Below are positions 372 through 26,403 of a DNA stretch of 64,000 nucleotides, piece after piece; position 1 is the stretch's first letter; each line of letters starts with the position of its first letter. The stretch lies in assembly GCA_045220475.1 (NCBI GenBank), contig JBGUVW010000031.1:84088-148087 (forward strand), given 5' to 3'. The notes below the pieces were generated by a model. That model worked only from the letters and a program-made list of their open reading frames with translations. It did not search any database and had not been told where the DNA came from. Source of the DNA: Bacteroidaceae bacterium. Lineage in GTDB: Bacteria > Bacteroidota > Bacteroidia > Bacteroidales > Bacteroidaceae. Both the position numbers and the translations under genes were made by a program.

Positions 372-448
372 GCTTCTTTAGCTCAGTTGGTTAGAGCATC
401 TGACTGTTAATCAGGGGGTCCTAGGTTCAAGTCCTAGAAGGAGCGCCA
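372..448 (+). tRNA. tRNA-Asn (anticodon GTT), CCA encoded
   Basis: Cloverleaf folded by hand. Acceptor is gcttctt/aaggagc, anticodon loop is ctGTTaa, T arm is ctagg-ttcaagt-cctag, discriminator is g, then cca. Confidence 0.93.
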
Positions 449-3183: not shown

Positions 3184-3265
3184 GCCCAGATGGCGGAATC
3201 GGTAGACGCGCTGGTCTCAAACACCAGTGGGGCAACCCGTGCCGGTTCGACCCCGGCTCTGGGTA
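3184..3265 (+). tRNA. tRNA-Leu (anticodon CAA), type II with long variable arm
   Basis: Acceptor is gcccaga/tctgggt (G1-U72 wobble), anticodon loop is ctCAAac, variable arm is tggggcaacccgt, and T arm is gccgg-ttcgacc-ccggc. Confidence 0.92.
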
Positions 3266-11186: not shown

Positions 11187-14100
11187 CTTTCTGTGTGCTT
11201 ATAGATTACGTAATAAGCCAGGGGTACAAAGAACACGCTCACAAACGTACCTGCAATCATGCCGCTTATGAGAGCCAGAGACAGAGGATACTGCAGGTCA
11301 CTACCCATATCGCCACGCACCAGGAACGGAGCGATGGCAAGGATAGTGGTGAGAGATGTCATTACTATAGCCTTAAGACGGCGGCTGCCGGCTTCAAGAA
11401 TAGCGTGTTTAAGCCCCATACCGCTCTCGCGCAGACGGTTTATGGTATCCACCTTAAGTATGGAGTCATTGATAACGATACCGCACATAACCACCATACC
11501 GATCATGGACATAAGGTTCAGAGTCTCACCAAAGATCCACAGTACACCAAGCACCGCAAAGATGTCTATGATAAGCTCACTCAGAATAATGAATGGCTGT
11601 ATCAGACTCTCAAACTGAGCCGACAGGATAAAGAACAGCAGCAGGATTGATATGACAAGCACTCCGCACAGCTCCTTTATCATCTCGCGGTTGGTAAAAT
11701 ATGTACCTGAGAAACTAACGTCAAACTTCTCATCGGCACGAACCACTTTCTGGATGGCATCCATGGCACGGCGTGCCTCCTTACCCTTAACATTGAGAAC
11801 CAACGGATAGAACTCACGGTCCACGCCCGATGTAATTGACTTGAGGTCACGGTTACGTGTCTCCTTGAGCAGGATCTCAAGCGGAACGCGTCCGCCACGG
11901 GTATCCAGATACTGGTTCTGGATAAGGTCACGTGCCTCCTTCTCGCCCACACCAATAACCACAGGCATGGAGATATCGCCCTTGGATATACGCAGAACGG
12001 AACTTGAATTCATTGATTTCTGCAGATAGCTGAGCAGCGTATTGAAATCCACCTCATAGAGGGCCAGACGCTCCGGATCTGCAACAAGCTCAATATACTC
12101 ATTCCACTCGGCCGGCTGAATCTCAATGTCGGGCAGTTCAGTACGTATGGAGCCAAGCAGGGATGTAAGCTGGTCAGGATCAGGGGTACTACCATTGGTA
12201 CGTTTAATACGTGCCACCAACGGCGGTTCATGATCTGAGAACAGCATATCAAAGATATTTCCCGATGCCTGACTGCTGTGAACGGCATCAGGCCAGGTCT
12301 TATGGATATACTCCGCTACCTGCTCCTCTATCTTATCAATGTCATGTGTTGATCCGGCCTTGATATAGATTATAGCCTCTGACAGTGTCAGCTCACGAGT
12401 GTGTGACAGGGCAAACTGCTGTGCACCGGTCATGCAGGTGTACTGCTCAACCATATCCGGGAACTGAGCCACGATCTGCTCACAACGACTGTTGTTCTCC
12501 TCAATCGATATGCGCTGGTTCCATTCAATGTTTACAAGAGTGTCACTGTGTGAAAGAACAGGCAGTTTCTGCTTGTCAAGCTTGATGAACAACACGCCTA
12601 TCAGCAATACGGCGGCACCGAATATGCCCCACATCACACCCCTGCGGCGGAAGAACCAACTCAGTATGCGGTCATAACCACCGGTCATGTTACCCACGCT
12701 TATCTTGCTTATGAACTTGTTGGGGGTAAAACAGGGCTGGTTCTTATAGAAACGGTAATAGAATACCGGAATGACCATTACGGAAACTATGAGTGCCGAT
12801 ATAAGAGTGATGGTAACTGCCATTGCCTCATCATAGAACAGGGCACCGGCAATTCCGCTCATGAATATAAGAGGAATGAATATGGCACATGTGGTGAGCA
12901 CGGAGCTCAACATAGGTGTGAACACCTCCTGGGTTCCGTAAACACAGGCATCCTGCAAGGGTTCTCCCTTCATCCAGCGTTGCGTGATGTTATCAATCGT
13001 GATGATGGAGTTATCCACCATCATACCCAAGCCCAATACCAGACCGGACAGAGAAATGATGTTGATTGATATCTTGAGCACGTAGAAGAACAGGAATGAC
13101 AATATCAGTGCCGTAGGAATGGTAATGACCACCAGCAGCGGACTGCGTACATCCTGCATAAAGAAGAATATTATGATACAGGCAAACAGGGCACCATACA
13201 GAAGGTTACGTACCATGTTGTTGATGGAGTAATCAAGCAACTCCGTCTGGTCACGTGTAATGGTGAACTCCATATCGGGATAATCCTTGTCAAAGGCATC
13301 CATCAGTTTCTGGATACCCTCACGCAGATTGGCCATTCGGGCATCGGTACGTTTGATTACAGCCAGTGTCACGCACTGTGAGCCGTCACTGGTAACCTCA
13401 CCCTTCTTACGCTGCTGCTCCTCACGTACCTCGGCCAGATCCTTGATCTGATAGGTGCGGCCGCCCAGTTTGAGCCATACGTTCTCAACATCCTCACGTG
13501 TAACCACGCTGGACTCAAAACGCACGTCAAAACGGTACTCACCGTCACGGATGGACAGGCTACCCAGGTTAACGTTGGCGCTTTGGATGGCATTGCTCAG
13601 TTGCTGCTCATTGGTACCTAAGGCACGCAGTTTCTCCATATCAGGTATGACAAGCAACTGCGGGTACACCTGTCCCGATACATCCACCATTGCCACCTCA
13701 GGAATCTGCTCCAGACGGCGTACAATGACCTGACGTACAAAATCGCTCATCTCCATGAAACGGTTATCACTGGTGTTGAGCCCCTTCTTGATGGAGACAT
13801 TTATAAAGAATGCCGGGATATCCGTAGCACTGGCACGTGCTATCATCGGGCGCTCCTCACCCTGAGGCCATCCTGCACGGTCCACGCGCTCATTGACATC
13901 TATAAAGATGTAATCGGCGTCTGCTCCGTACTCAAATGTCATCTGAATAAGGCCGCTGCCGTCACGGGCAGTACAGGTAATATCCTGCAGATGCGGGACC
14001 TGCACCAGCTCACTGCGCAACCTCTCCAACAGGATGTCGTTCAGCTCTCGCGCACTGCGGTCAGGCGATGTAACCTGAACCGTAATCTGCGGTATATTGA

Positions 14101-14212
14101 TATCGGGAACAAGTGATACCGGCAGTTTACGTATGGCCGCAATACCCAGGACCATAACTGCTATCAGCACCATGGTCACCGCTATGGGGCGGTTGGTCAA
14201 TCCTTTGAACAT
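11183..14212 (-). CDS. RND efflux permease (AcrB/MdtB-like), first of a tandem pair
   Basis: 1009 aa. The N-terminus MFKGLTNRPIAVTMVLIAVMVLGIAAIRKLPVSLVPDINIPQITVQ is typical of the HAE1 family. Confidence 0.92.
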   Translation of the reverse strand: MFKGLTNRPIAVTMVLIAVMVLGIAAIRKLPVSLVPDINIPQITVQVTSPDRSARELNDILLERLRSELVQVPHLQDITCTARDGSGLIQMTFEYGADADYIFIDVNERVDRAGWPQGEERPMIARASATDIPAFFINVSIKKGLNTSDNRFMEMSDFVRQVIVRRLEQIPEVAMVDVSGQVYPQLLVIPDMEKLRALGTNEQQLSNAIQSANVNLGSLSIRDGEYRFDVRFESSVVTREDVENVWLKLGGRTYQIKDLAEVREEQQRKKGEVTSDGSQCVTLAVIKRTDARMANLREGIQKLMDAFDKDYPDMEFTITRDQTELLDYSINNMVRNLLYGALFACIIIFFFMQDVRSPLLVVITIPTALILSFLFFYVLKISINIISLSGLVLGLGMMVDNSIITIDNITQRWMKGEPLQDACVYGTQEVFTPMLSSVLTTCAIFIPLIFMSGIAGALFYDEAMAVTITLISALIVSVMVIPVFYYRFYKNQPCFTPNKFISKISVGNMTGGYDRILSWFFRRRGVMWGIFGAAVLLIGVLFIKLDKQKLPVLSHSDTLVNIEWNQRISIEENNSRCEQIVAQFPDMVEQYTCMTGAQQFALSHTRELTLSEAIIYIKAGSTHDIDKIEEQVAEYIHKTWPDAVHSSQASGNIFDMLFSDHEPPLVARIKRTNGSTPDPDQLTSLLGSIRTELPDIEIQPAEWNEYIELVADPERLALYEVDFNTLLSYLQKSMNSSSVLRISKGDISMPVVIGVGEKEARDLIQNQYLDTRGGRVPLEILLKETRNRDLKSITSGVDREFYPLVLNVKGKEARRAMDAIQKVVRADEKFDVSFSGTYFTNREMIKELCGVLVISILLLFFILSAQFESLIQPFIILSELIIDIFAVLGVLWIFGETLNLMSMIGMVVMCGIVINDSILKVDTINRLRESGMGLKHAILEAGSRRLKAIVMTSLTTILAIAPFLVRGDMGSDLQYPLSLALISGMIAGTFVSVFFVPLAYYVIYKHTER

Positions 14213-14213
14213 A

Positions 14214-15308
14214 TCATTCCAGAACTACCGGAGCCTCATCGCCAAGATTAAGGTTTCCGCTGGTAATAATAAGGTCACCTAACTCAAGATCGGCTCCACG
14301 GTCCTTATTGGCCTCAACCACATGCTCCGTGGTGTTTGACATGAGCACATTCACATATGTCCACAGGCTCTTTCCGTCCTTGTATCGGAACAGCACATCC
14401 ATGTTGTCACGTATAACCACTGCGCTTTTGGGAACCACCAGCTGGTCTGGGATGCTGTTCTCAACAGTAATGCGCACGTTCATTCCGTCCATCAGGTCAT
14501 CTGATCCCGGAACCTGTGCAGTAACGGCAATCTGACCGTTCTGGTCAACAGTGGGGTTGATGGATATGATTGAACCCTTAAGCTCCACATCATTATCCAC
14601 AAACGGGGATACCAGCACCTGCTGGCCCACACGGATAAACTTATACTCTGTCTCCAGCACGCTGAAACGTACCAGATAACGGCTGTCATCAATCAGAGTG
14701 CACAACTGGCCGCTCTGCTCATGAACACGACCCTTAAGGCTGGCCACCTTTCCGCTGAAAGGAGCCCTAAGGTCACACTGCTCATATGTCCTCTCTGCGT
14801 TGGCAAGTGATATCTGAGCGTCTATGAAACCGCAATTGATATATATCACACGCTTCTGGTCTGCCGGAATCTTGGCAGTATCAGAGAGTGAATAACCGTA
14901 ATCCAGCAGCTTATCGGCCAGACTCATCTCGGCCTTGTCATATGACAGACGGGCCTGCTCCAGCTGACGGCGGGGCTGCTCCTTATCAAGTGATGCCAGG
15001 ATCTGTCCCTTCTGCACCTTCTGTCCGTCACGAACACCAATCTCAGCCACAGTACCCTGGGTTGCAAACTGAATGGTAACCTTACTCTGAGCCTCAAGCT
15101 TACCGTTGCAAACCAACTGCTTGTTAAAGGCCTTACGCTCCAGAGGTACCACGGTCACAACATTCTTCTCGGCATTGTAAGTACCGCGGGCCATCTCAGT
15201 ATCATCAGTATTCTCATTCTTCTCTTTCTTACCCTTGCAGCTGTTCATTCCATATGCAAGTGCTGCAAACAATACTATTGACGCAATCTTTAAAATATGC
15301 TTTTTCAT
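14214..15308 (-). CDS. RND periplasmic adaptor (membrane fusion) lipoprotein
   Basis: Start is set at M26 (ATG 15306-15308), giving MKKHILKIASIVLFAALAYGMNSC with a lipobox. It shows HlyD/MFP-type barrel-sandwich sequence. The longer track ORF would overlap the TolC gene. Confidence 0.85.
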   Translation of the reverse strand: MKKHILKIASIVLFAALAYGMNSCKGKKEKNENTDDTEMARGTYNAEKNVVTVVPLERKAFNKQLVCNGKLEAQSKVTIQFATQGTVAEIGVRDGQKVQKGQILASLDKEQPRRQLEQARLSYDKAEMSLADKLLDYGYSLSDTAKIPADQKRVIYINCGFIDAQISLANAERTYEQCDLRAPFSGKVASLKGRVHEQSGQLCTLIDDSRYLVRFSVLETEYKFIRVGQQVLVSPFVDNDVELKGSIISINPTVDQNGQIAVTAQVPGSDDLMDGMNVRITVENSIPDQLVVPKSAVVIRDNMDVLFRYKDGKSLWTYVNVLMSNTTEHVVEANKDRGADLELGDLIITSGNLNLGDEAPVVLE

Positions 15309-15327
15309 ACTCGTATAATTTCTATTC

Positions 15328-16839
15328 TTACTTGATAAGGTTGTCAAACTCAACACTAATGTCCTTGCCCGATTCCGGGTCATACAACGTAGTGCGTCTT
15401 ATGGCAAAATAATAGTTCCAGAAATTGCCAACACTGGAGACATAGTTGCTCAAGGCATCGTCACGTTTCTCCTTAAGCTGATCCAGCTGGGTCATGGTCA
15501 TTGAACTGCTGCTGAAATTCTTGAGCGCAAGCTCATAGCTCTCCTCAGCCAGGTCAGCTGCACGCTTTGAGATCTCACACTGACTGCGCTGATTGTTGAA
15601 CTGCATGACCTGGGTGAACAGGTCCTGACGGTAATCAATCATATTCTGCTCCAGACGGTTACGTGTGGTTTGGGCTCGAGCCTCGGCCATACGTACACGT
15701 CCGCGTGCCAGGCCCCAATCCAGAATGGGGATGTTGAGCTGAACATTAATAACCTCCTGGTCTTTAAGCTCAATGAACGTATCCCTGAATTTCTCCGATG
15801 AGCCCGACATACCGAATCTGGCGTTCAGTCTGGCAGACAGGCCCCTCTCCGACTTGGCCCTTGCGATACTGGACTCGGCCTCAATATACTCTATTTCCTG
15901 ACCCAGCTGGAATGATGAGTTGTGCAGAGCCCTGTCCAACATATCATCATAATCCAGAGTCACATCAGGAATATCATAGTCAATCTTAAGGTTCAGTTCC
16001 GTATCCTCCTTATAACCAATGTAAGAGCACAGACGGTTCAGTGACGAACGCAGACTGACCGACAAGGAACTCAGTTTCAAAGAGTCATTAAGCATTGTCA
16101 CCTCAATCTGCATAAGCTGGTCACGAGTTATGGTACCCATCTCAAAACGTGTCTGACCGGCCGCGAACAGGCGTTTACTCTCCTCAAAACTCTTCAGGGC
16201 ACGTTCATATTGCTCCTTTTCACGCACGTAACCCCAGAAATAAGAGACGGCAGTCTGGTTAACCTGCTCCATACTCTCAATGTATTGGCGTTTTGCCACC
16301 TCATACTGCTTGGGCTGTGTCTTTTTCTCCCACTTGAACTGGTTGTATCCCCACAGACTCTGGGCATAACTCAGATAAATGGGCTGTGCATAATAGGATG
16401 TAAGACGTGACGGGCTGTACTGATCCAGTCTCTGCATATCGGTAGACAGAGTAATCTGACCACCTGTAAGCGGAATGTTCTGACTGAAATTCAGCGTAGC
16501 GGTGTTTGTCATATTGTAACTGGTCCTGTAAGCTACAGCACCCGTACTGAAATCCTGCAGCTTATCAAGCGAACGTCTAAAATCGCCCAAAGTGGCACTA
16601 AGGCTCAATGAAGGCAACAGCTGCGCCTTATAAGAGCGGTAATTCCAGTACGACGCCACAAAATTGTTACGGTTACTCATTGAAGAGATTGAGTTCTCCT
16701 GAGCCAGTTGAATCACTTCCTGCATTGTAAGTGTTCTGGGACCGATAATCTGTCCTCCACACAAGGAATGCGCCAACAGCGCCGGCAGCAGGAGCAAAAC
16801 TCTTAGAAAAGGTCTTTTCATAAAGTTGATTGCAAACAA
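15328..16839 (-). CDS. TolC-family outer membrane efflux protein
   Basis: 503 aa with a signal peptide. LTMQEVIQLAQENS near the N-terminus and two OEP repeats are typical of TolC-like proteins. Confidence 0.85.
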   Translation of the reverse strand: MFAINFMKRPFLRVLLLLPALLAHSLCGGQIIGPRTLTMQEVIQLAQENSISSMSNRNNFVASYWNYRSYKAQLLPSLSLSATLGDFRRSLDKLQDFSTGAVAYRTSYNMTNTATLNFSQNIPLTGGQITLSTDMQRLDQYSPSRLTSYYAQPIYLSYAQSLWGYNQFKWEKKTQPKQYEVAKRQYIESMEQVNQTAVSYFWGYVREKEQYERALKSFEESKRLFAAGQTRFEMGTITRDQLMQIEVTMLNDSLKLSSLSVSLRSSLNRLCSYIGYKEDTELNLKIDYDIPDVTLDYDDMLDRALHNSSFQLGQEIEYIEAESSIARAKSERGLSARLNARFGMSGSSEKFRDTFIELKDQEVINVQLNIPILDWGLARGRVRMAEARAQTTRNRLEQNMIDYRQDLFTQVMQFNNQRSQCEISKRAADLAEESYELALKNFSSSSMTMTQLDQLKEKRDDALSNYVSSVGNFWNYYFAIRRTTLYDPESGKDISVEFDNLIK

Positions 16840-16943: not shown

Positions 16944-16951
16944 TATCTTTG
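16944..16951 (+). promoter_or_regulatory. -7 box TATCTTTG for the GNAT gene
   Basis: Exact consensus, 19 nt upstream of the ATG at 16970. It lies inside the TTG-started track ORF, so that start is rejected. Confidence 0.45.
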
Positions 16952-16969
16952 TACCACGTGATCAAGGAT

Positions 16970-17518
16970 ATGGATTCAGTCATTACACTAAGAAAAGCCA
17001 CCCAGGCCGATTCACGTTTCATTGCCGAGAACGTGCTCCGTGCGCTGCATATTGAGGAGACTGATCCCCGCCACATAGACCATCTGGCCACCATAAGCAG
17101 CCGTGAAGACACCTTGTACAGCTGGCGGAACTCCACGATTGCACTCTATGACGGTCAACCCGCCGGCCTGATGGTAGCCTATGACGGTGCCCGATACCGC
17201 CGTATGCGTGACATAACATTCCCCATGATCCGCATGTACGTAGGTGATGACTACAACCAGATGGATGACGAGGCCCGTCCCGGCGAGTTTTACCTTGACT
17301 CCCTGGCCGTACTCCCCCAGTTCCGCCGCAAAGGCGTAGCCACTGCCCTGATCAAAGAGATGTTCCGCCTGCAAAACGCCGCAGGAATACCCCTAGCCAC
17401 CATTGCCGTTGATCCGGAGAATGATGAAGCCTACCGCCTATACAGTGCGAACGGATTCCGTCACGACGGCTTCATCTCTGTATTCGGAACCACCTACCAC
17501 CGTTTGGTCTGCCCATAA
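16970..17518 (+). CDS. GNAT-family N-acetyltransferase
   Basis: It carries an acetyl-CoA binding motif region (LAVLPQFRRKGVATALI). Start is taken at the first ATG downstream of the promoter box. Confidence 0.8.
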   Translation: MDSVITLRKATQADSRFIAENVLRALHIEETDPRHIDHLATISSREDTLYSWRNSTIALYDGQPAGLMVAYDGARYRRMRDITFPMIRMYVGDDYNQMDDEARPGEFYLDSLAVLPQFRRKGVATALIKEMFRLQNAAGIPLATIAVDPENDEAYRLYSANGFRHDGFISVFGTTYHRLVCP

Positions 17519-18300
17519 CCATTAAGGACCTTCCGTCCCCCCACAATCCCTATTATAAACTCCTCGGGAATGAATCCCCAGAAACGGGAGTCATAGGAGT
17601 TCATGGAATTATCACCTAAAGCAAAATAATAATCCCCCTTAAAGGAATACTCCTCCAGATCATCACTCATTACATCGCCCGTCTCATACTCAATAACCTG
17701 ACGGTACAACTCACGGGTAAAACCATCCAGAGATACTTTCATTCCCTTTGCAGGAACAACCAAAGGACCCCAATTCTTTATGTTCCACTTATGAGCGGAT
17801 AATGGAATAACATCATAATTGTCATTCCAGATAAACACGCTGTCAAACATCCAGCGTAATCTCTCCTGCTCTTCTACTACTCCAATAGGCCTCAACACCT
17901 TGTCATTCCAACAATGCCCATCCACCGCTCCTATCCTATCTCCGGGACATCCCAGTACACGTTTACAGTATACCTCGGTATTATTAAGTTCAATTGTATG
18001 ACTCCATTTTTTTATAGGCGTATTAAACAGGATAACATCTCCCGGTAATAACTCCCTTAAACCAGGAATACGACAGACGTATTTTTTCTCATTAATCATT
18101 ATCCTAGGCCCAAACAGCATTTTGTCTACTTGAACTCTTTGACCCGGCTCTATGGTGGGATACATTGAGGGTGTCACCACTCTATAGGAATCCATTACCA
18201 GTATTTTTATCAGAACAACAGCCAAACATAAAGCAAACAGATAAGGAGTTACTACAGACTTAATGCTGCTATTCTTTGATTCTGTTCTTTTATTCTCCAT
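17494..18300 (-). CDS. Signal peptidase I (S26 family), last gene of the island operon
   Basis: N-terminal TM, Ser box VVTPSMYPTI, Lys box YCKRVLGCPGD, and GDNSMNSYDSRFWGFIP box. It overlaps the upstream gene by 11 nt and the convergent GNAT gene by 25 nt. Confidence 0.85.
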   Translation of the reverse strand: MENKRTESKNSSIKSVVTPYLFALCLAVVLIKILVMDSYRVVTPSMYPTIEPGQRVQVDKMLFGPRIMINEKKYVCRIPGLRELLPGDVILFNTPIKKWSHTIELNNTEVYCKRVLGCPGDRIGAVDGHCWNDKVLRPIGVVEEQERLRWMFDSVFIWNDNYDVIPLSAHKWNIKNWGPLVVPAKGMKVSLDGFTRELYRQVIEYETGDVMSDDLEEYSFKGDYYFALGDNSMNSYDSRFWGFIPEEFIIGIVGGRKVLNGYGQTKRW

Positions 18301-19921
18301 TTGCCAACATTTTTATACGGTTGTGATATTCTTTTGCGGTATTTGACTGAATTTTAGGAGTGAACTTATCTGAAAATACAGCAATTGCATCCAGTTTTTC
18401 CATATCGCCTGTATAATGATACAGTTCAGCCAGGTCCATTAATGGCGTTATCCTATGAGGTGTCAGCAGGAAAGATTTAATGTATGAAGTCTCAGCTTCA
18501 CTATAATGCTTATGCCTAAAATGATTATGCCCAATTTCACGCCATAAGGAGGGATTGTTATAACGGCTTATTCCCAACCGTAAGATAGAATCAGATTTTT
18601 CATAATGCCCTGTCTTACTTAAGGACACGCCATAAGCATAAATCAAATCTCCGCTCGATAAATCCTTGTCAAACCGGTCGTCACAAAGATTGCATACTGT
18701 CTGGAACTCCCCTTTGTTGAAAAAGAATAATGCATCTGATTCTCCATTCCTAAGTTCCCTAGATCGCTCTATTTGAGGCAACTCAAGAAACAGCATAATT
18801 CCAAATATAGCTATTTCACAATAAGTTAACAGTAAAGGAGCAAAGGAGTATTTGGTATCAGAGAAAGAGTTATCCAGACTACTTGCAGCTCCAAGAAACA
18901 TAGACAAAGACAAGCAATAATCAGAATAACAATGAGGATATGAGAATAGCGATATAAGGAATAGGGATAATAGACCATACCCCAATGGATTCTTATCTTT
19001 AATTAATAGCCATATTGCTCTTAGGATAATATAGAGTGATAACAACATCGCTAAGAAACCATGTTCCACTCCTATCCGCAGAAATTCATTGAACGCAGTC
19101 AATAGAGAACATGCATACCGGGCATCTTTAAAGTCGCCATTAAGTATAGAATCAATATCTACATCATATGAGTTATTACTGAAATACCTGATCTGTTCGT
19201 CTCCAAAGACAGTTGAAAAACTCTCTATTCCAGACCCCAGTACACCATTATGAGGCATTGCCCTAAATGCAATCTTTGCCATATAAAACCGTCCGTCTGC
19301 AGACGGTTTCTTTACGTAATAAAGAATCGCGAACAGGGAAACCAGAATAACAGCTATTGTAACAATATGTTTCTTGACAAACTCCGAATATTTTGGACTC
19401 AAACAGAAATAACAAAAGACCGGAATAATTAGTGCCAACAAAGCCAGACGGCTTTTTGTGAAACCAACTAATACAATGATCAAGCCAATCAACAATAAAG
19501 AAGGTATCTTTAGCCATACTTTGCATCCGTTAAGTACAATTACTGCCAACACGCTGCATGAAATGGAAAGAAAACATCCATAAAGATTAGTATTCGACAT
19601 TGAACCAACCGGATATTCAGCTCCATGATACAACTGTAAGATACCCATGTAAGACTCTTTTAATGTTATAAGCAAGAGTATGGATAAACATATCAGATAT
19701 GCCGTTCCTTTATAATAATGGAAAAGCAATCGCGAAACTGAATAATAAAATAGTATCAAGACACTGTTCCTCAGTTTGATATCTGAGGCACATTCTGCCA
19801 ATGAGGTATATCCACCAAGTATATATTGACCTGCAATCAGCAAAAATGCAAACAATAATATGGCGATATCCAACGAGCAGATTTTATGTATCTTCTTTAC
19901 TCGCGTCACTAATTCACTCAT
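18290..19921 (-). CDS. Polytopic membrane protein, O-antigen-ligase-like (Wzy_C) domain fused to C-terminal TPR repeats
   Basis: There are many hydrophobic segments over about 400 aa, then a soluble tail with TPR-like repeats (YAYGVSLSKTGHYEKSDSILRLG, HFRHKHYSEAETSYIKSFLLTP, LAELYHYTGDMEKL). Start is chosen at the ATG at 19919-19921 (ATGAGTGA overlap). The track ORF begins at a TTG at 19954. Confidence 0.6.
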   Translation of the reverse strand: MSELVTRVKKIHKICSLDIAILLFAFLLIAGQYILGGYTSLAECASDIKLRNSVLILFYYSVSRLLFHYYKGTAYLICLSILLLITLKESYMGILQLYHGAEYPVGSMSNTNLYGCFLSISCSVLAVIVLNGCKVWLKIPSLLLIGLIIVLVGFTKSRLALLALIIPVFCYFCLSPKYSEFVKKHIVTIAVILVSLFAILYYVKKPSADGRFYMAKIAFRAMPHNGVLGSGIESFSTVFGDEQIRYFSNNSYDVDIDSILNGDFKDARYACSLLTAFNEFLRIGVEHGFLAMLLSLYIILRAIWLLIKDKNPLGYGLLSLFLISLFSYPHCYSDYCLSLSMFLGAASSLDNSFSDTKYSFAPLLLTYCEIAIFGIMLFLELPQIERSRELRNGESDALFFFNKGEFQTVCNLCDDRFDKDLSSGDLIYAYGVSLSKTGHYEKSDSILRLGISRYNNPSLWREIGHNHFRHKHYSEAETSYIKSFLLTPHRITPLMDLAELYHYTGDMEKLDAIAVFSDKFTPKIQSNTAKEYHNRIKMLANGE

Positions 19922-20489
19922 AATACCAACCTGAATCATTATACATTTGGGCAAGGTAATCCAGACAGTCTTTCAACTTGCGTGTATCAGACTCTCTATT
20001 TTCCAGTCGATAATACTTTGATACCATACCATCTTTTGCGACCAATAGCAATCGTTGGTTACGGTTTAGAACTGCAGACATCTTGTACCTGAAATCAACC
20101 AATACGTCAAAAGGATAATCCTGAAACTTTATATCATTAACTATCAGGCCAATGTCATCCTTTGGAGATATAATCACCTTAAAATCACATCTATCGCCCA
20201 TTATCTCCCTGCAAACATCATAAAAGGATTCAAAGCCAAGCAGATGTTCCATTTCACATGCCGCACATTTTGATGAATCTATCCACAAAATGATGGAATA
20301 ATCATGTAACAAAGTATCTATTAGTACCATATCAACACGATTTCCCTTTACAAGCAGTAAACTGTCACATTCAATTTGTCTCCCAATTATATCATCATTT
20401 CTGATTATTCCGGAACTGAAAAAACATAACGACAACACCAGAATAATCAGACTGGACGATAACCATTTTTTTACAGATTCCTTACTCAT
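19914..20489 (-). CDS. Membrane-anchored thioredoxin-like protein with CAAC motif
   Basis: N-terminal TM (WLSSSLIILVLSLCFF). LWIDSSKCAACE resembles the W-x-x-x-C-x-x-C active-site region of TlpA-type proteins, with 2 extra residues. Its ATG directly abuts the upstream stop. Confidence 0.5.
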   Translation of the reverse strand: MSKESVKKWLSSSLIILVLSLCFFSSGIIRNDDIIGRQIECDSLLLVKGNRVDMVLIDTLLHDYSIILWIDSSKCAACEMEHLLGFESFYDVCREIMGDRCDFKVIISPKDDIGLIVNDIKFQDYPFDVLVDFRYKMSAVLNRNQRLLLVAKDGMVSKYYRLENRESDTRKLKDCLDYLAQMYNDSGWYYE

Positions 20490-21713
20490 TTACAACAGCT
20501 CCATCTTAATAAAGATTGTTTCTCCCTCAGAAAGGTTCTGTTCTTCAACATATCTCTTCAATTGCTTATAGAGAGACCTGATTTTTTCATCATGAAGGGA
20601 TTCGGTTTTTGAAAGAATGTAGTATAAACTATAAGAAACACGACCATATATAATATTGTCATACTCACATAACCTTGTAAAGGAGAACCATATATATTTC
20701 CATATATCCAATGTTGTCAATTCCGGAACCAGAGAATCTTCAAAGAAACTGTCAGGACGCAAAATAATACCACAAGAGTTTTGCGTCTTGTCATACAACA
20801 TGGAATGATATTTATTGTTGATAAAAAAATTGGCTACAATATATTTGTCCGTTTCAAATAAGCCGGATATAGAGTTAAGGAAATCCCCATTAAATACCAT
20901 AAGATCTTTACCCGGAAGCATCAGTTCAGCCCCAGTAATTCCATCAAAGATGTCTTTTGTCATCTCCTTATCTGCCTTAAACCTGTAAGTTGATTCAACC
21001 CCGTTCTTGGTCAAAGAAAAAATATTGTAATCATAATTCAACATGAATCGGAGTGTATCATGATAAATATATGATAATTCCGTATACCCTTCAGTTCCAT
21101 TAAATGCTATCAAGTAAGGCGGCATAGTCAGATAACTGTCATATCTGGAAGCATCTTTATTATAGGTTATGCAGTAATGATTATTTTTTTCATTCTCTCC
21201 AAAAACGGTGAGGCCCAAATAAGAATCTGAGTTCTTATACAGATAACTCCCTTTTATTTCGGTCTTATTATCATAACCCATGAATTCTCCCATATCTGTA
21301 TAACGCAACAGTCGGCCCAATACAAGATCATAAAGCATCAGTGTATCATTCATCATAAACATGTTACCCACATTCAGCACTTCACCTCTCCCCCTTCCGG
21401 TAAGTGGTTTTGAGAACTTAAGATTGCCAGACTTGTCATAACCCAAGAAAAAATAGGTCCTATCTGAAAGGAAATAATAACCATTATCAGAAACGGCCAT
21501 TTTAGGACAATCCAGATGAACCCAATTATCACCAACCTTCAAGTTCAATACACTGATATCCGCAATTCTGTCAATGATATCAAAACGGTTCGTTTTATTA
21601 TCCAGATCAATATAATGTTTGGTAGGATAATTAAATAAATCTTCACCGCTGTTCTTATCAGAACATGAAATCAAAGAAACCAACAATAAACACAAACAAA
21701 TAATCTTTTTCAT
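20490..21713 (-). CDS. Lipoprotein, 6-bladed beta-propeller-like (BF3164-like Bacteroidales family)
   Basis: Signal peptide with lipobox LISC. The sequence is Tyr/Asn/Phe-rich, repetitive and beta-type. Its overall resemblance to the Bacteroidales 6-bladed beta-propeller family is judged from memory only. Confidence 0.55.
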   Translation of the reverse strand: MKKIICLCLLLVSLISCSDKNSGEDLFNYPTKHYIDLDNKTNRFDIIDRIADISVLNLKVGDNWVHLDCPKMAVSDNGYYFLSDRTYFFLGYDKSGNLKFSKPLTGRGRGEVLNVGNMFMMNDTLMLYDLVLGRLLRYTDMGEFMGYDNKTEIKGSYLYKNSDSYLGLTVFGENEKNNHYCITYNKDASRYDSYLTMPPYLIAFNGTEGYTELSYIYHDTLRFMLNYDYNIFSLTKNGVESTYRFKADKEMTKDIFDGITGAELMLPGKDLMVFNGDFLNSISGLFETDKYIVANFFINNKYHSMLYDKTQNSCGIILRPDSFFEDSLVPELTTLDIWKYIWFSFTRLCEYDNIIYGRVSYSLYYILSKTESLHDEKIRSLYKQLKRYVEEQNLSEGETIFIKMELL

Positions 21714-21731
21714 AATCTTTATCTATTTAAT

Positions 21732-21753
21732 ATTTGGGGCCGAAGCCCCAAAT
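21732..21753 (-). other. Intra-operon stem-loop with cUUCGg tetraloop
   Basis: The minus-strand RNA is AUUUGGGGC-UUCG-GCCCCAAAU, a 9-bp stem with no U-tract after it. It lies between the second small-protein gene and the propeller gene. Confidence 0.7.
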
Positions 21754-21758
21754 AAGAA

Positions 21759-22127
21759 TTAATACTCCATTAGTTCTGGTATGATATTATCGAGTTTAGT
21801 ACCATCTGGCAGCCAAACCCCAACATATTGAGTTTCACACAAAGAGTAATCTTGTGATCCACACCACCTTTCTTCAATTCTTCCATCATCTATTGACAGA
21901 TCTATGTTATAGATATTGAAAAACTCTAAAGGAGTTAGGCGCCTACGTCTTAGGGTCGTATTAAAAATAAATGATACTTCTGTACCATTTTCCATTCTCC
22001 ATCCCCATTCGGGAGGTTCAGCATATGCAATTTTTGTATCAAATGACAGAGCACTTATAACATTCTCTGATTGACACAACAAAAACAATAAGCTGATAGC
22101 GATAATATAAACTCTGTATTTCTTCAT
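21759..22127 (-). CDS. Small secreted protein B (122 aa), paralog of 22160-22570
   Basis: N-terminal hydrophobic segment, then ENVISALSFDTKIAYAEPPEW, ENGTE, and WCGSQDYSLCETQY. It aligns end to end with protein A. Confidence 0.65.
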   Translation of the reverse strand: MKKYRVYIIAISLLFLLCQSENVISALSFDTKIAYAEPPEWGWRMENGTEVSFIFNTTLRRRRLTPLEFFNIYNIDLSIDDGRIEERWCGSQDYSLCETQYVGVWLPDGTKLDNIIPELMEY

Positions 22128-22159
22128 GTTAAGATAGTATTATATGTTTAATACTCAAA

Positions 22160-22570
22160 TCAAAAAGGACTGCTTAACATTGGAACCCATTGTTTTGAAC
22201 CTGGTAGTATTAGAAAAACATTTCCATTGTAAGACATCGGACACATATCATCATCGCTTTTTGTACAATATGTGAGAGCTATCCTGCAATCAGACAGCGC
22301 TTTATGATACGCTCCGGCCCTAGCCTCAAGCATTTTAACTGTAACTCCCAGAGTACCACCCCATTCGCTTGCTGTATTATATACAATATCTGGTCTGGAA
22401 TTAAGCAATACTACTCTTTCGGTTCCATTCGCATCAGGAAGAAGTACCCACTCTGGATCTGCATAAGCAATCTTTGTGTCAAAAAACAATGCATTCCTTA
22501 CACGATCAATAGAAAGCACAGATAAAGCTGCTGTCATTATGGCTAGCAGTACATAATGTTTTGTTTTCAT
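22160..22570 (-). CDS. Small secreted protein A (136 aa), paralog of 21759-22127
   Basis: Start is moved to M33 (ATG 22568-22570), where MKTKHYVLLAIMTAALSVLS forms a signal sequence aligned to protein B. It then reads DRVRNALFFDTKIAYADPEW, ANGTE, and YCTKSDDDMCPMSY. Confidence 0.65.
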   Translation of the reverse strand: MKTKHYVLLAIMTAALSVLSIDRVRNALFFDTKIAYADPEWVLLPDANGTERVVLLNSRPDIVYNTASEWGGTLGVTVKMLEARAGAYHKALSDCRIALTYCTKSDDDMCPMSYNGNVFLILPGSKQWVPMLSSPF

Positions 22571-22751
22571 TTCAATTATTTTTAAAGTTAAACTCATTGT
22601 ACTATTAAGCTTTGATTCCACAATACATGATAGTTGTTTGTAGGGCGTAAAAGCCTTTATACACAATCTCTCATTTATGGAAAAGGTCTAAAACCATATT
22701 TCTTTATCATCCAATTTGCTTAAGACTAGATGAATAATTCTTTAAATCCAC

Positions 22752-22759
22752 TATCTTTG
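22752..22759 (+). promoter_or_regulatory. Orphan -7 box TATCTTTG pointing away from the island operon
   Basis: Exact consensus, but no annotated plus-strand gene follows. A 31-codon ORF (22784-22879) and a hairpin lie downstream. Confidence 0.35.
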
Positions 22760-23033
22760 CGGCGTTCAGGTTTAGGTTAAACTATGGACCTGGATTGGGA
22801 AGGGATATTGACAGCGAACTTTGCAAGGGTGGCACTGTCTTATCCCTTCTCTCTTTCCAGATCTGTTATTGCTCTCTAGTTTTCTATCACATAATTCAAT
22901 TCTTTAGTCAACAATCGTGATAAATCCGCCATGGGCAGCTACCATGCACCCTTGGAGCCTATGCACGGAGCCGCCCCGGCAGATAAAGCTATTGTTGAGT
23001 TACATTAATATTATCTAATACCATAATCATTCA

Positions 23034-25010
23034 TTACCACCATTCTATGTTTCCGTCTTGATCCAGCAGGAACGGACGCTCATCATTTCCTCTGGTATAG
23101 TTACGTAGCCAGAGAAGTGTATTGATGGGAACATTGTCATAATGCAGAGTGTTGTCATCGGCCACTTTACGGCCTATTGAGAACCAGTCTAGTCCGTCAA
23201 AGTACAGCAGTTCATACTGGTTGCCGGGACATATGTCATTGTCATCACTACGGGGGACAATCCTTACGAATGATACATTGCCAGGAGTTCCCAAATCCAG
23301 CCCCACCCAGTTTCCATCTGGTTGGTTCACCTCAAAATTGCTGAGCAGGTCTCCGTCATATGCCCGGTCTATTGCATCCTGGCCCGCCTCGGGGACTGCA
23401 ATTCCACGGCCTTTTACCGGATTACCCAAGCTATCCATAAACAGGACCTCGGCAACACTACCCCATGAGCCGTCGGGCGAGAGATAACGCCAGTAACGGT
23501 AAGGGGCACGGGCACAAACCGGAATCTTGTCAGGAATTATTGTACTCTCTATTGTGTAAAGTGTTACTGAATCACTGAAATCAGGACGTGTTGCGCACTG
23601 TATCTTGCCTCCAAGTATACGCCGACGCATATCTACCACATTATAAGACTCAAAGTACTTGCGACGAATATCAATGCTGCGCACGCCGTCACCTCCTTCG
23701 CTATGGATATAACGTACTCTACCGTCTTTTTCCAGGATAAACGGTTCACTTGCCGGAGCAAGGGCAGAACCGTTATAATAGAGCGCTATGTAAAGAACGT
23801 TTCTACCCATGTTCCTGAAACAGGCCTTATCATGCTTAACCTCTCCATAATCCAGGACACGCCATGATGGACCACCGGAATTTACAAACACTGCTATGTA
23901 GGCATATTTATCATCAATCCTTATATCACTCAATAACTGAACCTCTATGTCCGATGTCCGTACGTAATGGTCCGTCACATCCTGCTGGCACAGATCAAAC
24001 TGATGGACATATTTGGCCGTATTACGGTATCTTACAATGTCACGGTTAATGGAAAATGTACTGCGCCAAACTTTGGGAATACGTTCATAGGGATAGAATG
24101 GCATGCCAGCCGCTACGATAAGGGAATTGATAGTTGGAGTCTCCTTGCCCTGGTCTGAAAGGAACGTGAACCAACTGTGTCCTTCACTGTTACGTCCCCA
24201 TACTGGAACACGGTCCACAACCGACGGCAGTCCCAGGCTACGGAAAACGGCAGTTCCCATAGTTACATAATCATAACAGCTGCCAAATGTCATATGGGCC
24301 CATGTCTGGGCATTTCTTAAAGGTATACCGCTGCGTTCCTCCCATAATACACGCGGCGGATTCTTGGTATGAATCTCATTACGGACTATATCTATTGCAC
24401 CATATATGGAGAGACGGCGGTCATCATCTGACGGAACGGAACTGATACTGTCCGAGAAACGTGCCGAAAGGGTATCACGCCATGAATCCAGCAACTGATA
24501 ATCTATGACTTTGTATGGCAATATCCAATCCCTGAACTCATCAAATGTGAGATGCTGAGCCCACGGACGGGTACGCCACTCATGGAATGCCTTGTCAATA
24601 TTTTCAATCAGATAATCAGATGTTACCAGCTTTATGTCAGATTCTACGGATCTTGAAAGAGTATAATTGAGCGCATCACTGATGGAGCGTAAGGTATCAC
24701 GCTGCCACTCGGGGGTACCGCCTGATTGCTGAATCTTAAGAGCTGCGTTATAATAGAAATCAACTGTTGCCGTATCAGAGTATGAGAAGTGTCCCGGCAT
24801 GTTGATGATAAGATACTTGGCAGCAGCTAACTTGGACGGATCCTTGTCCTCGTGCCTATAATGGTCAAGGACCCGTTCAAGTTGCGGCCGGTTCTCGCCG
24901 GCAACTTTAAGGGCATAACGCAGATACCTCTGTTCATTACTGCAACTGCTTAAAACTGCCAGGAGAACACATGAGACCGAAGCCCCAATAAATCCAAAGA
25001 TGTTTTTCAT
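23034..25010 (-). CDS. Transglutaminase-like lipoprotein with C-terminal F5/8 type C (discoidin) domain
   Basis: Lipobox LSSC. Core motifs are FGSCYDY...FRSLGLPSVVDRV...GHSWF (Cys and His of the transglutaminase core). The C-terminus YWRYLSPDGSWGSVAEV...WVGLDLG...FVRIVPR is discoidin-like. Confidence 0.8.
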   Translation of the reverse strand: MKNIFGFIGASVSCVLLAVLSSCSNEQRYLRYALKVAGENRPQLERVLDHYRHEDKDPSKLAAAKYLIINMPGHFSYSDTATVDFYYNAALKIQQSGGTPEWQRDTLRSISDALNYTLSRSVESDIKLVTSDYLIENIDKAFHEWRTRPWAQHLTFDEFRDWILPYKVIDYQLLDSWRDTLSARFSDSISSVPSDDDRRLSIYGAIDIVRNEIHTKNPPRVLWEERSGIPLRNAQTWAHMTFGSCYDYVTMGTAVFRSLGLPSVVDRVPVWGRNSEGHSWFTFLSDQGKETPTINSLIVAAGMPFYPYERIPKVWRSTFSINRDIVRYRNTAKYVHQFDLCQQDVTDHYVRTSDIEVQLLSDIRIDDKYAYIAVFVNSGGPSWRVLDYGEVKHDKACFRNMGRNVLYIALYYNGSALAPASEPFILEKDGRVRYIHSEGGDGVRSIDIRRKYFESYNVVDMRRRILGGKIQCATRPDFSDSVTLYTIESTIIPDKIPVCARAPYRYWRYLSPDGSWGSVAEVLFMDSLGNPVKGRGIAVPEAGQDAIDRAYDGDLLSNFEVNQPDGNWVGLDLGTPGNVSFVRIVPRSDDNDICPGNQYELLYFDGLDWFSIGRKVADDNTLHYDNVPINTLLWLRNYTRGNDERPFLLDQDGNIEWW

Positions 25011-25017
25011 GATTGAT

Positions 25018-26403
25018 TCAGATTGGTTTATTACACCATTTATTCAAATATGGAGAGAAAACCGTATCAGCAGATACGTATTGGGTGGTTCCATCCTTCT
25101 TTAATATAAAGGGATCTGATATCGGTACGAGAGCAACACCGTCATAACCCAGAACTATGTACATGACTTCACGGCCCATGTTCTCAAAAACGGCCCTACG
25201 ACCCTTTAGTTTGCAGAAATCTACAATTTTCCAACCGTCCGGCTCAGGACCCGCACTGGGTGCGATATGGTCCTGAGTTGAACGAATGGCCGAAGCGATA
25301 TAGACGTATCGGTCCTTAAGTTTGCTCCGGTTGTGTTTTTCAATAGTTACAGAGACATGTGATGAAAGAAAGTATTTGTCTGTGACGTCCTTTACGGTAA
25401 TATCAAAGGGATATACGTACTTTGCGTTCTGTATATAATCAAGTCTGCGTTCATCTATTGCATATGTCTGTCTGAATACCTTGGGCCCACGTTCATACGG
25501 AAAGAAGGACCAGCCTATCTGGGTGGCAAGATCCCACTCTGAGGTAACCTCCTTACCGCGGTCCGACAAAATCACGAACCAACGGGTTGCTGCCTCATCC
25601 CTTGCTCCTACAGGAGTTTCATCAAGAACCACCGGAACTCCCATACTGCGGAATGACAAAGCAGCCAGCAGCGCATAATCAGGAATATGTCCGAATGTCT
25701 GACGGTGCAGAAGTGAAGCGCTGAGCAACGGCAATCCACTTTCCGTATAGAGGCCGTGACGGTTTATCTTGGTTAGAACCTCATTGCGGATCATATCGGC
25801 CACACCTGTGGTGGTATTGTACTCCACATCATTCTTTACGGGATTACGCATGCCGTCACCAAAGTACAGTGATAAGGTGTCACGCCAATAATCCAATTCC
25901 TGCAGATCTACCGCCTTATATGGCAACAGCCATTCCAGATACTCATTGAAAGTGAGCTGGCTTGCCCATGGACAGTTTTTCCACTGGTCATAAGAGAGGT
26001 CTATATTATGTATAAGATAATCCTTTGATATTACTCTTGTATCAGGGACGGTACGCTCAGGTAAATGAGAATACAACCTTTTGGTCACCATGAGCAGTGA
26101 GTCGCGCTGTGACTCAGGTGTAAGGGTGTCATTACTCAGAATGCGCTGAGCATAGTCATAATACAGGTAAATGGAATCACCCAAGTAAGAATAGTGCGCG
26201 GACATATTCTTAATAAGGAACAGGGCTGCTTCAAATTTCTCGGGAACAGGATCCTGGGTACTGTAGTGATTTAAGACAGCCTCTATGGTCGGCCGGTTTT
26301 CACCGGCCGACCCGAGCGCTGTTTCCAGCTGAGTGTTTTTACTCTGACAGGAAAAGGCTGCAAACAAGGCCATCATAGCGATGATGGAGTCTCTTAACAA
26401 CAT
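25018..26403 (-). CDS. Transglutaminase-like lipoprotein paralog lacking catalytic Cys and His
   Basis: It aligns with the downstream paralog, for example AGENRPTIEAVLNHY against AGENRPQLERVLDHY. The core reads FGHIPDY...ATRWF in place of FGSCYDY...GHSWF, and there is no discoidin domain. Confidence 0.7.
   Translation of the reverse strand: MLLRDSIIAMMALFAAFSCQSKNTQLETALGSAGENRPTIEAVLNHYSTQDPVPEKFEAALFLIKNMSAHYSYLGDSIYLYYDYAQRILSNDTLTPESQRDSLLMVTKRLYSHLPERTVPDTRVISKDYLIHNIDLSYDQWKNCPWASQLTFNEYLEWLLPYKAVDLQELDYWRDTLSLYFGDGMRNPVKNDVEYNTTTGVADMIRNEVLTKINRHGLYTESGLPLLSASLLHRQTFGHIPDYALLAALSFRSMGVPVVLDETPVGARDEAATRWFVILSDRGKEVTSEWDLATQIGWSFFPYERGPKVFRQTYAIDERRLDYIQNAKYVYPFDITVKDVTDKYFLSSHVSVTIEKHNRSKLKDRYVYIASAIRSTQDHIAPSAGPEPDGWKIVDFCKLKGRRAVFENMGREVMYIVLGYDGVALVPISDPFILKKDGTTQYVSADTVFSPYLNKWCNKPI

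Follow-up and report, generated by a model that had tools for sequence, protein, structure and literature searches.

The stretch analyzed here, 64,000 nucleotides (nt) of contig JBGUVW010000031.1 from a Bacteroidaceae bacterium (hereafter the window), holds six co-directional minus-strand open reading frames (ORFs) at positions 17494-22570. They encode two small secreted proteins (small A and small B), a DUF5128 propeller lipoprotein, an anchored protein with a CxxC motif, a Wzy_C-like membrane protein with a tetratricopeptide repeat (TPR) tail, and an S26 signal peptidase. We conclude that the six genes evidently form a true operon, which is conserved among Bacteroidales of the gut and the rumen. 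We read it, tentatively and with a little less than even confidence, as a dedicated envelope maturation operon, in which two fast-evolving small secreted proteins (the cargo) would be served by four periplasm-facing factors. The reading builds on a conserved gene set, conserved catalytic residues, an invariant CxxC, a leader peptide with A-x-A, a gradient of evolutionary rates, and RNA elements.

The operon and its conservation

The six genes were taken from the ORF list and read on the reverse strand. Gene order and all five junctions agreed with a preliminary description of the window, which had been made from the letters alone. A 32-nt gap separates small A from small B, and a 45-nt gap separates small B from the lipoprotein gene. 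The TAA of the lipoprotein gene directly abuts the ATG of the CxxC gene, the CxxC and Wzy_C genes share an 8-nt overlap (ATGAGTGA), and the Wzy_C and S26 genes share an 11-nt overlap (ATGGAGAATAA). The N-termini of homologues fit the ATG starts of that description and not the longer TTG ORFs of the list. By hydropathy, all six products have an N-terminal hydrophobic segment or are polytopic. The block is also AT-rich as described, with a GC content of 36.8% in the operon and 48.8% in the remaining window.

Loci from genomes and metagenomes were compared under the working labels L001 to L132. A homology search with the S26 peptidase returned more than 400 relatives. In all eight that were examined (48-62% identity), the peptidase gene ends the same arrangement at its 3' end: one to three small ORFs, a DUF5128 protein of ~390-406 amino acids (aa), a protein of ~170-220 aa, a Wzy_C-like protein of ~500-556 aa, and S26. 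The same gene arrangement was found in a rumen Bacteroidales metagenome-assembled genome (MAG; locus L009), and at least three close loci were obtained when genome contigs were scanned with the generic S26 motif DSR[YF][WF]GF[IV]P.

As an independent anchor, we scanned metagenomes with the Wzy_C/TPR alignment (motif KKPSADGR). This gave 32 distinct strong loci, which were scored with hidden Markov models (HMMs) of the operon proteins. Of the 29 evaluable loci, 25 contained S26, in 19 cases adjoining or overlapping the Wzy_C gene. The propeller was detected in 19 of 26 loci and the CxxC protein likewise in 19 of 26. Two loci missed by the operon HMMs nonetheless contain the six families, in changed order: L107 carries CxxC, two small genes, propeller, Wzy_C, and S26, and L118 carries Wzy_C, a small gene, propeller, an extra gene, a CxxC protein (CGPC), and S26. 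The gene set recurs in dozens of loci that are independent and strongly diverged, which puts the arrangement far beyond chance. The preliminary description had staked its idea on the co-occurrence of the six families in other genomes; they do recur together, usually with translational overlap.

Several of these loci lie at the chromosomal site of the window, between paralogous lipoprotein genes of ~450 and ~660 aa on one side and a GNAT / TolC-RND block on the other. Homologues of the two lipoproteins upstream of the window operon (658 and 461 aa) mark the same site in L009, L104, L107, and L118. Because the same site holds allelic gene sets in related genomes, we regard the window operon as an allele of a hypervariable locus. 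On the same observation, we rejected a mobile island of unrelated genes as an explanation of the AT-rich block.

Two variations of the arrangement were observed. At L104, a tandem-duplicated cassette (9553-13213) stands after the Wzy_C/TPR gene. Each copy consists of a leader element (see below), a 95-aa NIEALT small protein, and a propeller lipoprotein of 364/365 aa. This duplication suggests that cargo and propeller are the minimal unit. In a single lineage, represented by L004 (547-3120), L006 (960-3565), L090 (491-3068), L091 (549-3141), and L092 (1-2980), divergent genes for a DUF4369-thioredoxin (TlpA-like) protein and a Polysacc_synt protein (Wzx-like flippase) precede the operon. The two genes are absent beside the window operon, and the pair could be synteny or an accessory module.

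Cargo and machinery

Small A and small B are paralogs, as had been proposed (27% identity, E = 2e-8), and share the stretch ALxFDTKIAYA(D/E)PEW and a C-terminal cysteine pair. Each has a predicted leader (Table 1) that is conserved, unusually long, and ends in A-x-A, consistent with the secretion expected in the preliminary description. The mature part of small A is predicted to start with DPEW at coordinate 22459. For small B, the predicted mature part begins with EPPEW, includes W-C-x7-C-E, and has PELMEY at its end. Three cysteines (C-x6-C-x7/8-C) are kept in mature small A and in its orthologs in L002, L090, and L097-L102; with this odd number, one thiol would be free for an intermolecular bond or for modification.

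When cargo proteins from the loci were gathered, they fell into several mutually unalignable types, and one to three cargo genes of varying type were found per locus. All types share one plan: a basic N-terminus with a hydrophobic helix, ~18 conserved residues, and a small-x-small site followed by acidic residues. The conserved leader ends in A-x-(A/S) in every case of type-1 and type-2 cargo. The window-type tag reads (V/F)(R/K)(N/D)A(L/F)xF(D/N)TxIAYA and the distant-type tag N(V/I)EA(L/F)(T/S), then acidic residues. Conserved C-terminal tails (PELMEY/PELMYY and NPF) were also seen. The preliminary description had pointed to the NVEALA family. This did not hold for profile membership: neither small protein matched PF14055 at E ≤ 0.1, and the best scores among distant cargo were 12.8-12.9 bits against a cut-off of 27 (E ~0.1). 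The likeness is at the motif level, with ENVISALS in small B and NVEALT, NIEALS, and NVEAFT in relatives.

Small B has few detectable relatives. A word-indexed search returned near-identical sequences only, and its profile, run exhaustively with HMMER against 1.84 billion representatives, found three true relatives only. An AlphaFold2 model of small B from eight sequences (mean confidence score pLDDT 70.5) shows a transmembrane (TM) helix, a short second helix, a disordered A-Y-A cleavage region, and a compact alpha/beta domain. Foldseek searches of this model against PDB and BFVD gave no match below E = 0.27, and all TM-scores were ≤0.27.

Comparison between loci revealed that the small proteins evidently evolve far faster than the machinery. 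Identity to the window is 42-62% for S26, 26-53% for Wzy_C, 20-59% for the propeller, 25-45% for the CxxC protein, and 28-41% or unrecognizable for the cargo. In the closest allele (L095), the machinery is 90-95% and the cargo 75-79% identical. The small B leader is invariant at 15 of the 18 positions 19-36, and the mature part at 47 of 86. The ratio of nonsynonymous to synonymous substitutions (dN/dS) between the window and L095 was 0.11 for the small A leader, 0.87 for mature small A, and 0.10-0.19 for the machinery genes; these values, from one sequence pair, are indicative and do not test positive selection. For the mature part of small B compared with L095 (4134-4502), dN was 0.22 and dS 0.77, and the dS of the flanking genes was 3-5 times lower (0.14-0.27). 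This elevated dS hints at allelic replacement by recombination in an otherwise closely related locus.

On profile searches, the family assignments of the preliminary description held unevenly. S26 (PF10502; E = 2e-24, 86.9 bits versus a cut-off of 22.9) and DUF5128 (PF17170; 26.0 bits versus 22.9, residues 34-316) scored above their cut-offs. Wzy_C (PF04932; E = 4.5e-7, 30.2 bits) fell just under its cut-off of 31.7, single Pfam TPR models were weak and below cut-off, and no Pfam or NCBIfam family was found for the CxxC protein, small A, or small B.

The peptidase is complete, as had been noted. It also matched TIGR02227 (76 bits versus a cut-off of 47), has one hydrophobic N-terminal segment (residues 16-34), and keeps its Ser/Lys dyad and its GDN and DSR boxes in all 14 aligned homologues, in which S45 (SM.PT), K113 (CKR), G229-D230-N231, and D237-S238-R239 are invariant. 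By these residues it is a P-type Ser/Lys signal peptidase I of a Bacteroidaceae-specific subfamily. A relative of ~46% identity (P0124) and the enzyme of locus L008 stand alone beside purE. Since relatives of 48-62% identity sit in the operon and the ~46% paralog stands alone, the operon peptidase looks like a specialized offshoot of a Bacteroidaceae S26 paralog, and the purE-adjacent paralog is the probable ancestor of the operon copy. In Bacteroidaceae MAGs, this stand-alone paralog next to purE was located at 8914-9711 in L008 and at 8001-8852 in L094; it reads RLRQTPDS where the operon enzymes read LRWMFDS.

The CxxC protein is N-terminally anchored and carries LWIDSSKCAACE, with the CxxC at residues 75-78. 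Among nine homologues of 11-40% identity, C75 and C78 are the only invariant residues besides Met1. A word-indexed search with this protein returned near-identical sequences only. With the family profile, the best PDB match was StoA (3erw), which was weak (E = 0.13); the alignment placed the CxxC on CPPC and PFDVLVD on FPIVLD, which suits the place of the thioredoxin CxxC behind a hydrophobic strand, at the N-terminus of helix 1. An hhalign comparison of the CxxC family with the neighboring DUF4369-thioredoxin (TlpA-like) family was negative, and a single-sequence AlphaFold2 model was unusable (pLDDT 50). The protein in the same slot of L132 reached the Pfam cut-offs for Redoxin (28.2 bits) and AhpC-TSA (27.2 bits), and that in L118 (CGPC) came close to the Redoxin cut-off (E = 6e-5). 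A thioredoxin fold is thus probable. The thioredoxin-like anchor of the preliminary description stands as far as the invariant CxxC and these same-slot matches go, and not by any family match of the window protein itself.

The third product is a propeller-type lipoprotein with the lipobox LISC, in line with its earlier description. Across 11 homologues, invariance is limited to the lipid-attachment residue Cys17 and the blade motif G(R/N)GxGE, and no conserved set of catalytic-looking residues was found among them. The propeller therefore looks like a binding scaffold and not like an enzyme. A PDB sequence search with it gave nothing useful.

The membrane protein belongs to a group in which all nine homologues matched Wzy_C at E ≤ 0.01 (best 1.6e-9); the precomputed Wzy_C matches of L004 and L088 stand unmarked. 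Its TPR tail comprises approximately residues 400-540, and residues 400-512 matched consensus TPR chains in PDB (E = 3.9e-7). From hydropathy and the positive-inside rule, we propose 11 TM segments, an N-terminus inside, and a periplasmic TPR domain; in this manual topology, the conserved Wzy_C-like motifs would cluster in periplasmic segments. Conserved motifs are E..G.LQ, GS..NPN, SR.A, KKPSADGR, AFNE.L..GVE.G, FSYP, and NRITPL..LA.LY, and R158 and R211 do not vary. The TPR motif NRITPL..LA.LY ranks with the best-conserved stretches and hints at a conserved ligand. An invariant His is lacking throughout the homologues aligned. The segment that we take to correspond to the "HN" motif of WaaL/PglL (aHN.yL) reads AFNE, AYNE, GFND, or AFCD, so that the presumed position of the catalytic His holds F or Y in this family. 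A PDB sequence search with the membrane domain matched neither WaaL nor PglL. The glycan or lipid-linked transfer suggested in the preliminary description was pure inference and gained nothing from these results.

Elements of the operon leader and the surroundings

Upstream of small A, an alignment of nine loci contained a conserved block that folds into a three-part hairpin in each locus (leader hairpin, Table 1). Its outer part is GATYTGGA/TCCARRTC, its middle part is GAAGGG/CCCTTC, and its inner stem is variable. The apical loop AC(C/T)CTTGCAAAGT (22818-22830) is invariant. A covariance model of this element (R1) gave 31 matches of 37-93 bits, spread over 30 operon loci. Every match is on the operon strand, with the hairpin 150-300 nt upstream of the small genes. 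At L104 it occurs twice (9553-9648 and 11484-11579), once before each cassette. No match was obtained in 37 control loci without a Wzy_C homologue, within 1.32 Mb searched; these controls comprised 34 other Bacteroidota S26 loci and the solo-S26 loci L008, L010, and L094.

Covariation was analyzed in two alignments. In the model-based alignment, 23 of 25 pairs vary on both sides, 84 cells were counted versus 34 ± 5 in shuffled controls, and 72% were paired versus at most 48% when the partners were slid. In the raw MAFFT alignment, the structure beat 500 of 500 shuffles and all slid controls. For this hairpin, no Rfam 15 family reached gathering score in the window, and at E ≤ 1 the region 21600-23200 gave two chance matches only. 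Reverse-complement folds of the hairpin are often more stable. The hairpin is thus a candidate for a new cis-regulatory RNA or a structured DNA motif, with the strand of transcription either way. In the box downstream of it (Table 1), GCAAA(G/A) is invariant in the nine loci. The reverse complement of the box, TATCTTTGC, fits what we take to be the Bacteroides -7 consensus (TAnnTTTG) on the opposite strand and could be read as a putative promoter.

Two further hairpins were detected. The long GC-rich one follows the stop codon of the upstream 658-aa gene and precedes the operon leader. L002, L004, and L009 have homologous hairpins whose arms carry compensatory changes, and in L004 the upstream gene is divergent. 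This hairpin may be the terminator of the upstream gene or a part of the operon leader. The stem-loop after small B has the same sequence in L002, L088, L090, and L092, and in L006, L089, and L091 its place is taken by unrelated hairpins of like strength, in total 8 of 10 loci. It was missed by a consensus terminator scan because it has no T-run. This stem-loop is likely an attenuator or a transcript-stabilizing hairpin that would uncouple the levels of cargo and machinery. In sigma-70 and terminator scans, counts were at shuffle level.

Farther upstream of the leader element, several loci contain a conserved hairpin, CCGTACCGGTCAGGACC...GGTCCTGATCCGGNCGG, which is absent from the window. It was seen at the DNA level in predicted, otherwise unrelated "ORFs" that share only AIRTGQ...GPDPxGW (L002 2372-2767, L004 3427-3843, L006 3813-4133, L090 3298-3690, L100 4776-5072, L101 4929-5165, and L114 5164-5700). 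These regions are probably non-coding.

The operon is flanked by a convergent GNAT acetyltransferase gene, whose 3' end overlaps the S26 stop region and which is also present in L001-L003, L006, L007, L090, L092, and L097. On the upstream side are the two paralogous lipoprotein genes. Their products had no Pfam match, and a transglutaminase-like label for them was dropped for lack of Pfam backing. Downstream of the operon lies an RND efflux operon, which was called from translations and from Pfam OEP matches on homologues in L001 and L088. An Rfam scan also located three tRNA genes in the window.

Table 1. Coordinates of the operon genes, leader elements, and neighboring features (window positions unless a locus is named)
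Feature	Position	Strand	Details
Small A	22160-22570	-	136 aa; leader residues 1-37: TM helix, then RVRNALFFDTKIAYA
Small B	21759-22127	-	122 aa; leader residues 1-36 (SENVISALSFDTKIAYA)
DUF5128 lipoprotein	20490-21713	-	407 aa
CxxC protein	19914-20489	-	191 aa
Wzy_C/TPR protein	18290-19921	-	543 aa
S26 peptidase	17494-18300	-	268 aa
Leader hairpin	22779-22871	-	93 nt; covariance model R1, 78.6 bits in the window
Leader hairpin, other loci	L002 2906-2999; L004 3754-3846; L009 4537-4629		also in ~25 further loci
Box GCAAAGATAG	22751-22760	-	~20 nt downstream of the leader hairpin
Long GC-rich hairpin	22925-22983	-	59 nt; -38.5 kcal/mol; loop GGCTCCAAGG
Stem-loop TTATTTGGGGCTTCGGCCCCAAATA	21731-21755	-	in the 45-nt gap after small B; -16.2 kcal/mol
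GNAT acetyltransferase gene	16949-17518	+	convergent with the operon
Upstream lipoprotein gene	23034-25010	-	658 aa
Upstream lipoprotein gene	25018-26403	-	461 aa
RND efflux operon	11183-16839	-	TolC-like factor 503 aa, periplasmic adaptor 389 aa, pump 1009 aa
tRNA gene	372-445	+	
tRNA gene	3184-3265	+	
tRNA gene	61749-61820	-	

Proposed pathway, rival explanations, and related systems

If the operon serves envelope maturation, transcription would run through a leader with the 93-nt hairpin, and the stem-loop after small B would favor the cargo transcript over that of the machinery. Sec would insert the pre-proteins via the N-terminal hydrophobic helix. The cleavage-proximal region of ~18 residues (an NVEALA-like helix, then FDTKIAYA) may, judging from its conservation, tether the protein at the membrane and act as a recognition tag. 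The anchored CxxC protein would make or isomerize the conserved cysteine pairs of the mature domain. The operon S26 would then cut after A-x-A, freeing an 86- to 99-aa domain with an acidic first residue. The DUF5128 propeller lipoprotein, which diverges in step with the cargo, may be a binding partner for delivery onward or for retention. The Wzy_C-like protein, with its periplasmic TPR, would most likely dock the leader or organize the complex; glycan transfer by it is possible and is given less weight. Once mature, the small proteins probably work on the cell surface or beyond it and would be under diversifying selection. As to why the operon should have a private peptidase, it is plausible that the 18-residue region sets the site farther from the membrane than LepB prefers. 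This reasoning leans on the general geometry of signal peptides.

Several points weigh against this proposal. We infer every biochemical step, the order of the steps, and the destination of the cargo from sequence. Cleavage of the small proteins by the operon S26 is predicted solely from the A-x-(A/S) with which the conserved leader ends, and a housekeeping LepB could also cut A-x-A. No S26 gene was found in L097, L104, L116 (none within 8 kb), or L119, and L104 also has no CxxC protein, yet keeps its cargo and propeller cassettes behind the same leader element. With these genes missing in some loci, the peptidase and the oxidoreductase appear dispensable or replaceable. The pathway that the preliminary description had called self-contained is therefore supported by the repeated co-occurrence of its parts, and its self-containment is not, with the peptidase missing in 4 of 29 loci and both enzymes missing in L104. 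No thioredoxin model matched the window CxxC protein directly. The modeled cargo fold yields no functional hint, the data require no step for the Wzy_C-like protein, and the dN/dS values come from a single pair.

Four other functions were weighed on the same evidence. The small cysteine proteins could be antibacterial, with the propeller as periplasmic immunity protein or receptor mimic and the other three products as maturation helpers. The hypervariable cargo next to conserved machinery, the high dN of the mature domains, the one-to-one, tandem-duplicated cargo and propeller cassettes of L104, and the AT-rich composition of the block all suit such a bacteriocin-like toxin and immunity system. 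Known Bacteroidales peptide toxins are, moreover, small and disulfide-bonded. Even so, we consider this explanation unlikely, if worth keeping in mind: the locus occupies the same chromosomal site in many relatives and is neither strain-specific nor mobile, an export ATPase, an outer-membrane pore, and a peptidase-containing ABC transporter are all missing from the operon, and the cargo resembles no known toxin by sequence or fold (PADLOC defense models had no matches, and Pfam gave nothing). A surface fiber or appendage is a quite improbable alternative. Small A and small B would be its major and minor subunits in need of a dedicated signal peptidase, and the Wzy_C-like protein would attach it to a glycolipid. 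Two paralogous subunits, a layout of cargo, hairpin, and machinery typical of pilin operons, the conserved C-terminal tails PELMEY/PELMYY and NPF, and mature parts that diversify like surface antigens fit a fiber. So does the fact that most known dedicated S26-type enzymes serve fiber or pilus subunits, for example in tapA-sipW-tasA, the streptococcal SipA pili, and TraF-TrbC. On the other side, an usher, a secretin, a sortase, and any outer-membrane component are missing, the predicted fold of small B is unlike pilin or TasA, the cargo genes vary in number (1-3) and type by locus, S26 is missing in some loci, and SipW is an ER-type Ser/His enzyme, whereas the operon peptidase is Ser/Lys.

The Wzy_C-like protein is central to the two remaining explanations. 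It could be an oligosaccharyltransferase of the PglL/PilO type, whose TPR selects the small proteins and which adds an undecaprenyl-linked glycan to them after leader removal. A Wzy_C match in 9 of 9 homologues favors this protein O-glycosylation, as does the combination of a membrane transferase with TPR, which is the domain logic of known protein glycosyltransferases such as TMTC and OGT. The adjacency of pilA and tfpO is a precedent, and five loci (L004, L006, L090, L091, and L092) have a divergent Wzx-like Polysacc_synt gene upstream. However, what we take to be the catalytic His position of WaaL/PglL is F or Y in all homologues, with no invariant His, and there was no sequence match to solved WaaL. 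The Bacteroidetes sequon D-(S/T)-(A/I/L/V/M/T) is not conserved in the cargo, and the operon has no glycosyltransferase. The flippase neighbor is absent from the window, L009, L088, L107, and L118 and thus looks like lineage synteny. Overall, O-glycosylation is very doubtful. We give the least credence to the notion that the small proteins are signal-anchored subunits or regulators of a Wzy_C-centered complex that modifies envelope glycans or lipopolysaccharide (LPS), with S26 as a second housekeeping peptidase. This would agree with the Wzy_C family, which consists mostly of glycan ligases and polymerases, with the dispensability of S26 in some loci, and with the stand-alone paralog of its subfamily beside purE. 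It is hard to reconcile with a conserved A-x-A exactly at the end of the conserved leader, followed by acidic residues, with an S26 gene that adjoins or overlaps the Wzy_C gene in 19 loci, with a mature-domain divergence too extreme for fixed complex subunits, and with the repeated cargo and propeller cassette of L104.

None of the known systems compared here combines all these parts, and the literature searched contained neither a description of this six-gene combination nor a function for NVEALA/propeller pairs. This agrees with the preliminary description, which knew of no characterized function for the combination. The tapA-sipW-tasA operon of Bacillus subtilis likewise joins two secreted proteins and their own type I signal peptidase in one operon, and its cargo is presumably also needed in excess of the enzyme. 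SipW, however, is of the ER/archaeal Ser/His type, and the operon S26 is P-type, with the Lys conserved at the general-base position. Partners of the thioredoxin-like, propeller, and Wzy_C/TPR kinds are absent from the tasA operon, and the organism studied here is diderm. The cargo has no TasA-like sequence or fold; the resemblance between the two operons is functional only. In TraF-TrbC of IncP plasmids, an S26-family enzyme is also dedicated to one small exported protein, and the operon S26 is weakly similar to the TraF models (E = 4e-5, far below cut-off). TraF, in contrast, trims the C-terminus of its pilin and cyclizes it, and the operon has no conjugation context.

The pilin glycosylation pairs pilA-tfpO/pilO of Pseudomonas and PglL of Neisseria resemble the operon in placing a Wzy_C-family protein next to a small secreted protein, which has an N-terminal hydrophobic helix and a C-terminal disulfide loop. 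In these pairs a prepilin peptidase removes the leader, whereas here the leader would be cut by S26 at A-x-A on the periplasmic side. The operon also differs by its TPR tail, the lack of pilus assembly genes, and the apparent absence of the canonical catalytic His. The assT-dsbL-dsbI genes of uropathogenic Escherichia coli offer a dedicated thiol-disulfide oxidoreductase beside a six-bladed beta-propeller protein. There the propeller is the substrate. Here the propeller keeps a single invariant Cys, Cys17 for lipid attachment, conserved cysteines are found in the small proteins, and there is no DsbB-like partner.

Bacteroides pairs of NVEALA (PF14055) and propeller (DUF5128/TolB_like) proteins share with the operon a DUF5128 lipoprotein beside small signal-anchor proteins, and distant alleles of the locus carry N(V/I)EA(L/F)(T/S). 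Compared with that family (68-85 aa), the window small proteins are longer (122-136 aa), have the extra FDTKIAYA segment, and do not match PF14055. There is a small chance, well below that of the maturation operon proposed above, that the locus is a new sorting and maturation pathway, in which extended NVEALA-type leaders would bring hypervariable small proteins to a dedicated complex of the signal peptidase, the thioredoxin-like protein, the propeller lipoprotein, and the WaaL-like/TPR protein, and the WaaL-like component would anchor or conjugate the cargo to a lipid-linked glycan or LPS under the control of a new class of leader RNA. If true, this anchoring would be a second route of surface display beside the type IX system. 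A published transcriptome table of B. thetaiotaomicron lists BT0662 as O-antigen ligase family, BT0663 as hypothetical, BT0664 as six-bladed propeller, and BT0667 as lepB; none of the papers searched discusses these genes. With four such annotations within six locus tags, this region is alike by gene list alone and is a candidate equivalent only.

On balance, we rate the operon as belonging with the dedicated-signal-peptidase operons, with a real chance that it is something further removed. Bacteroidales dominate the gut and the rumen, and many of their genomes annotate NVEALA small proteins and six-bladed propeller lipoproteins. The locus links these orphan families both to a dedicated cis element and to three enzymes of recognizable chemistry. 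With its good covariation support, the leader hairpin is a candidate for a new regulatory RNA motif. Few parts of the genome evolve as fast as the cargo, which sits at a fixed site; this is the pattern expected for molecules that face competitors, phages, or the host. The probable B. thetaiotaomicron equivalent, if it holds, would provide a genetically tractable host for this question.

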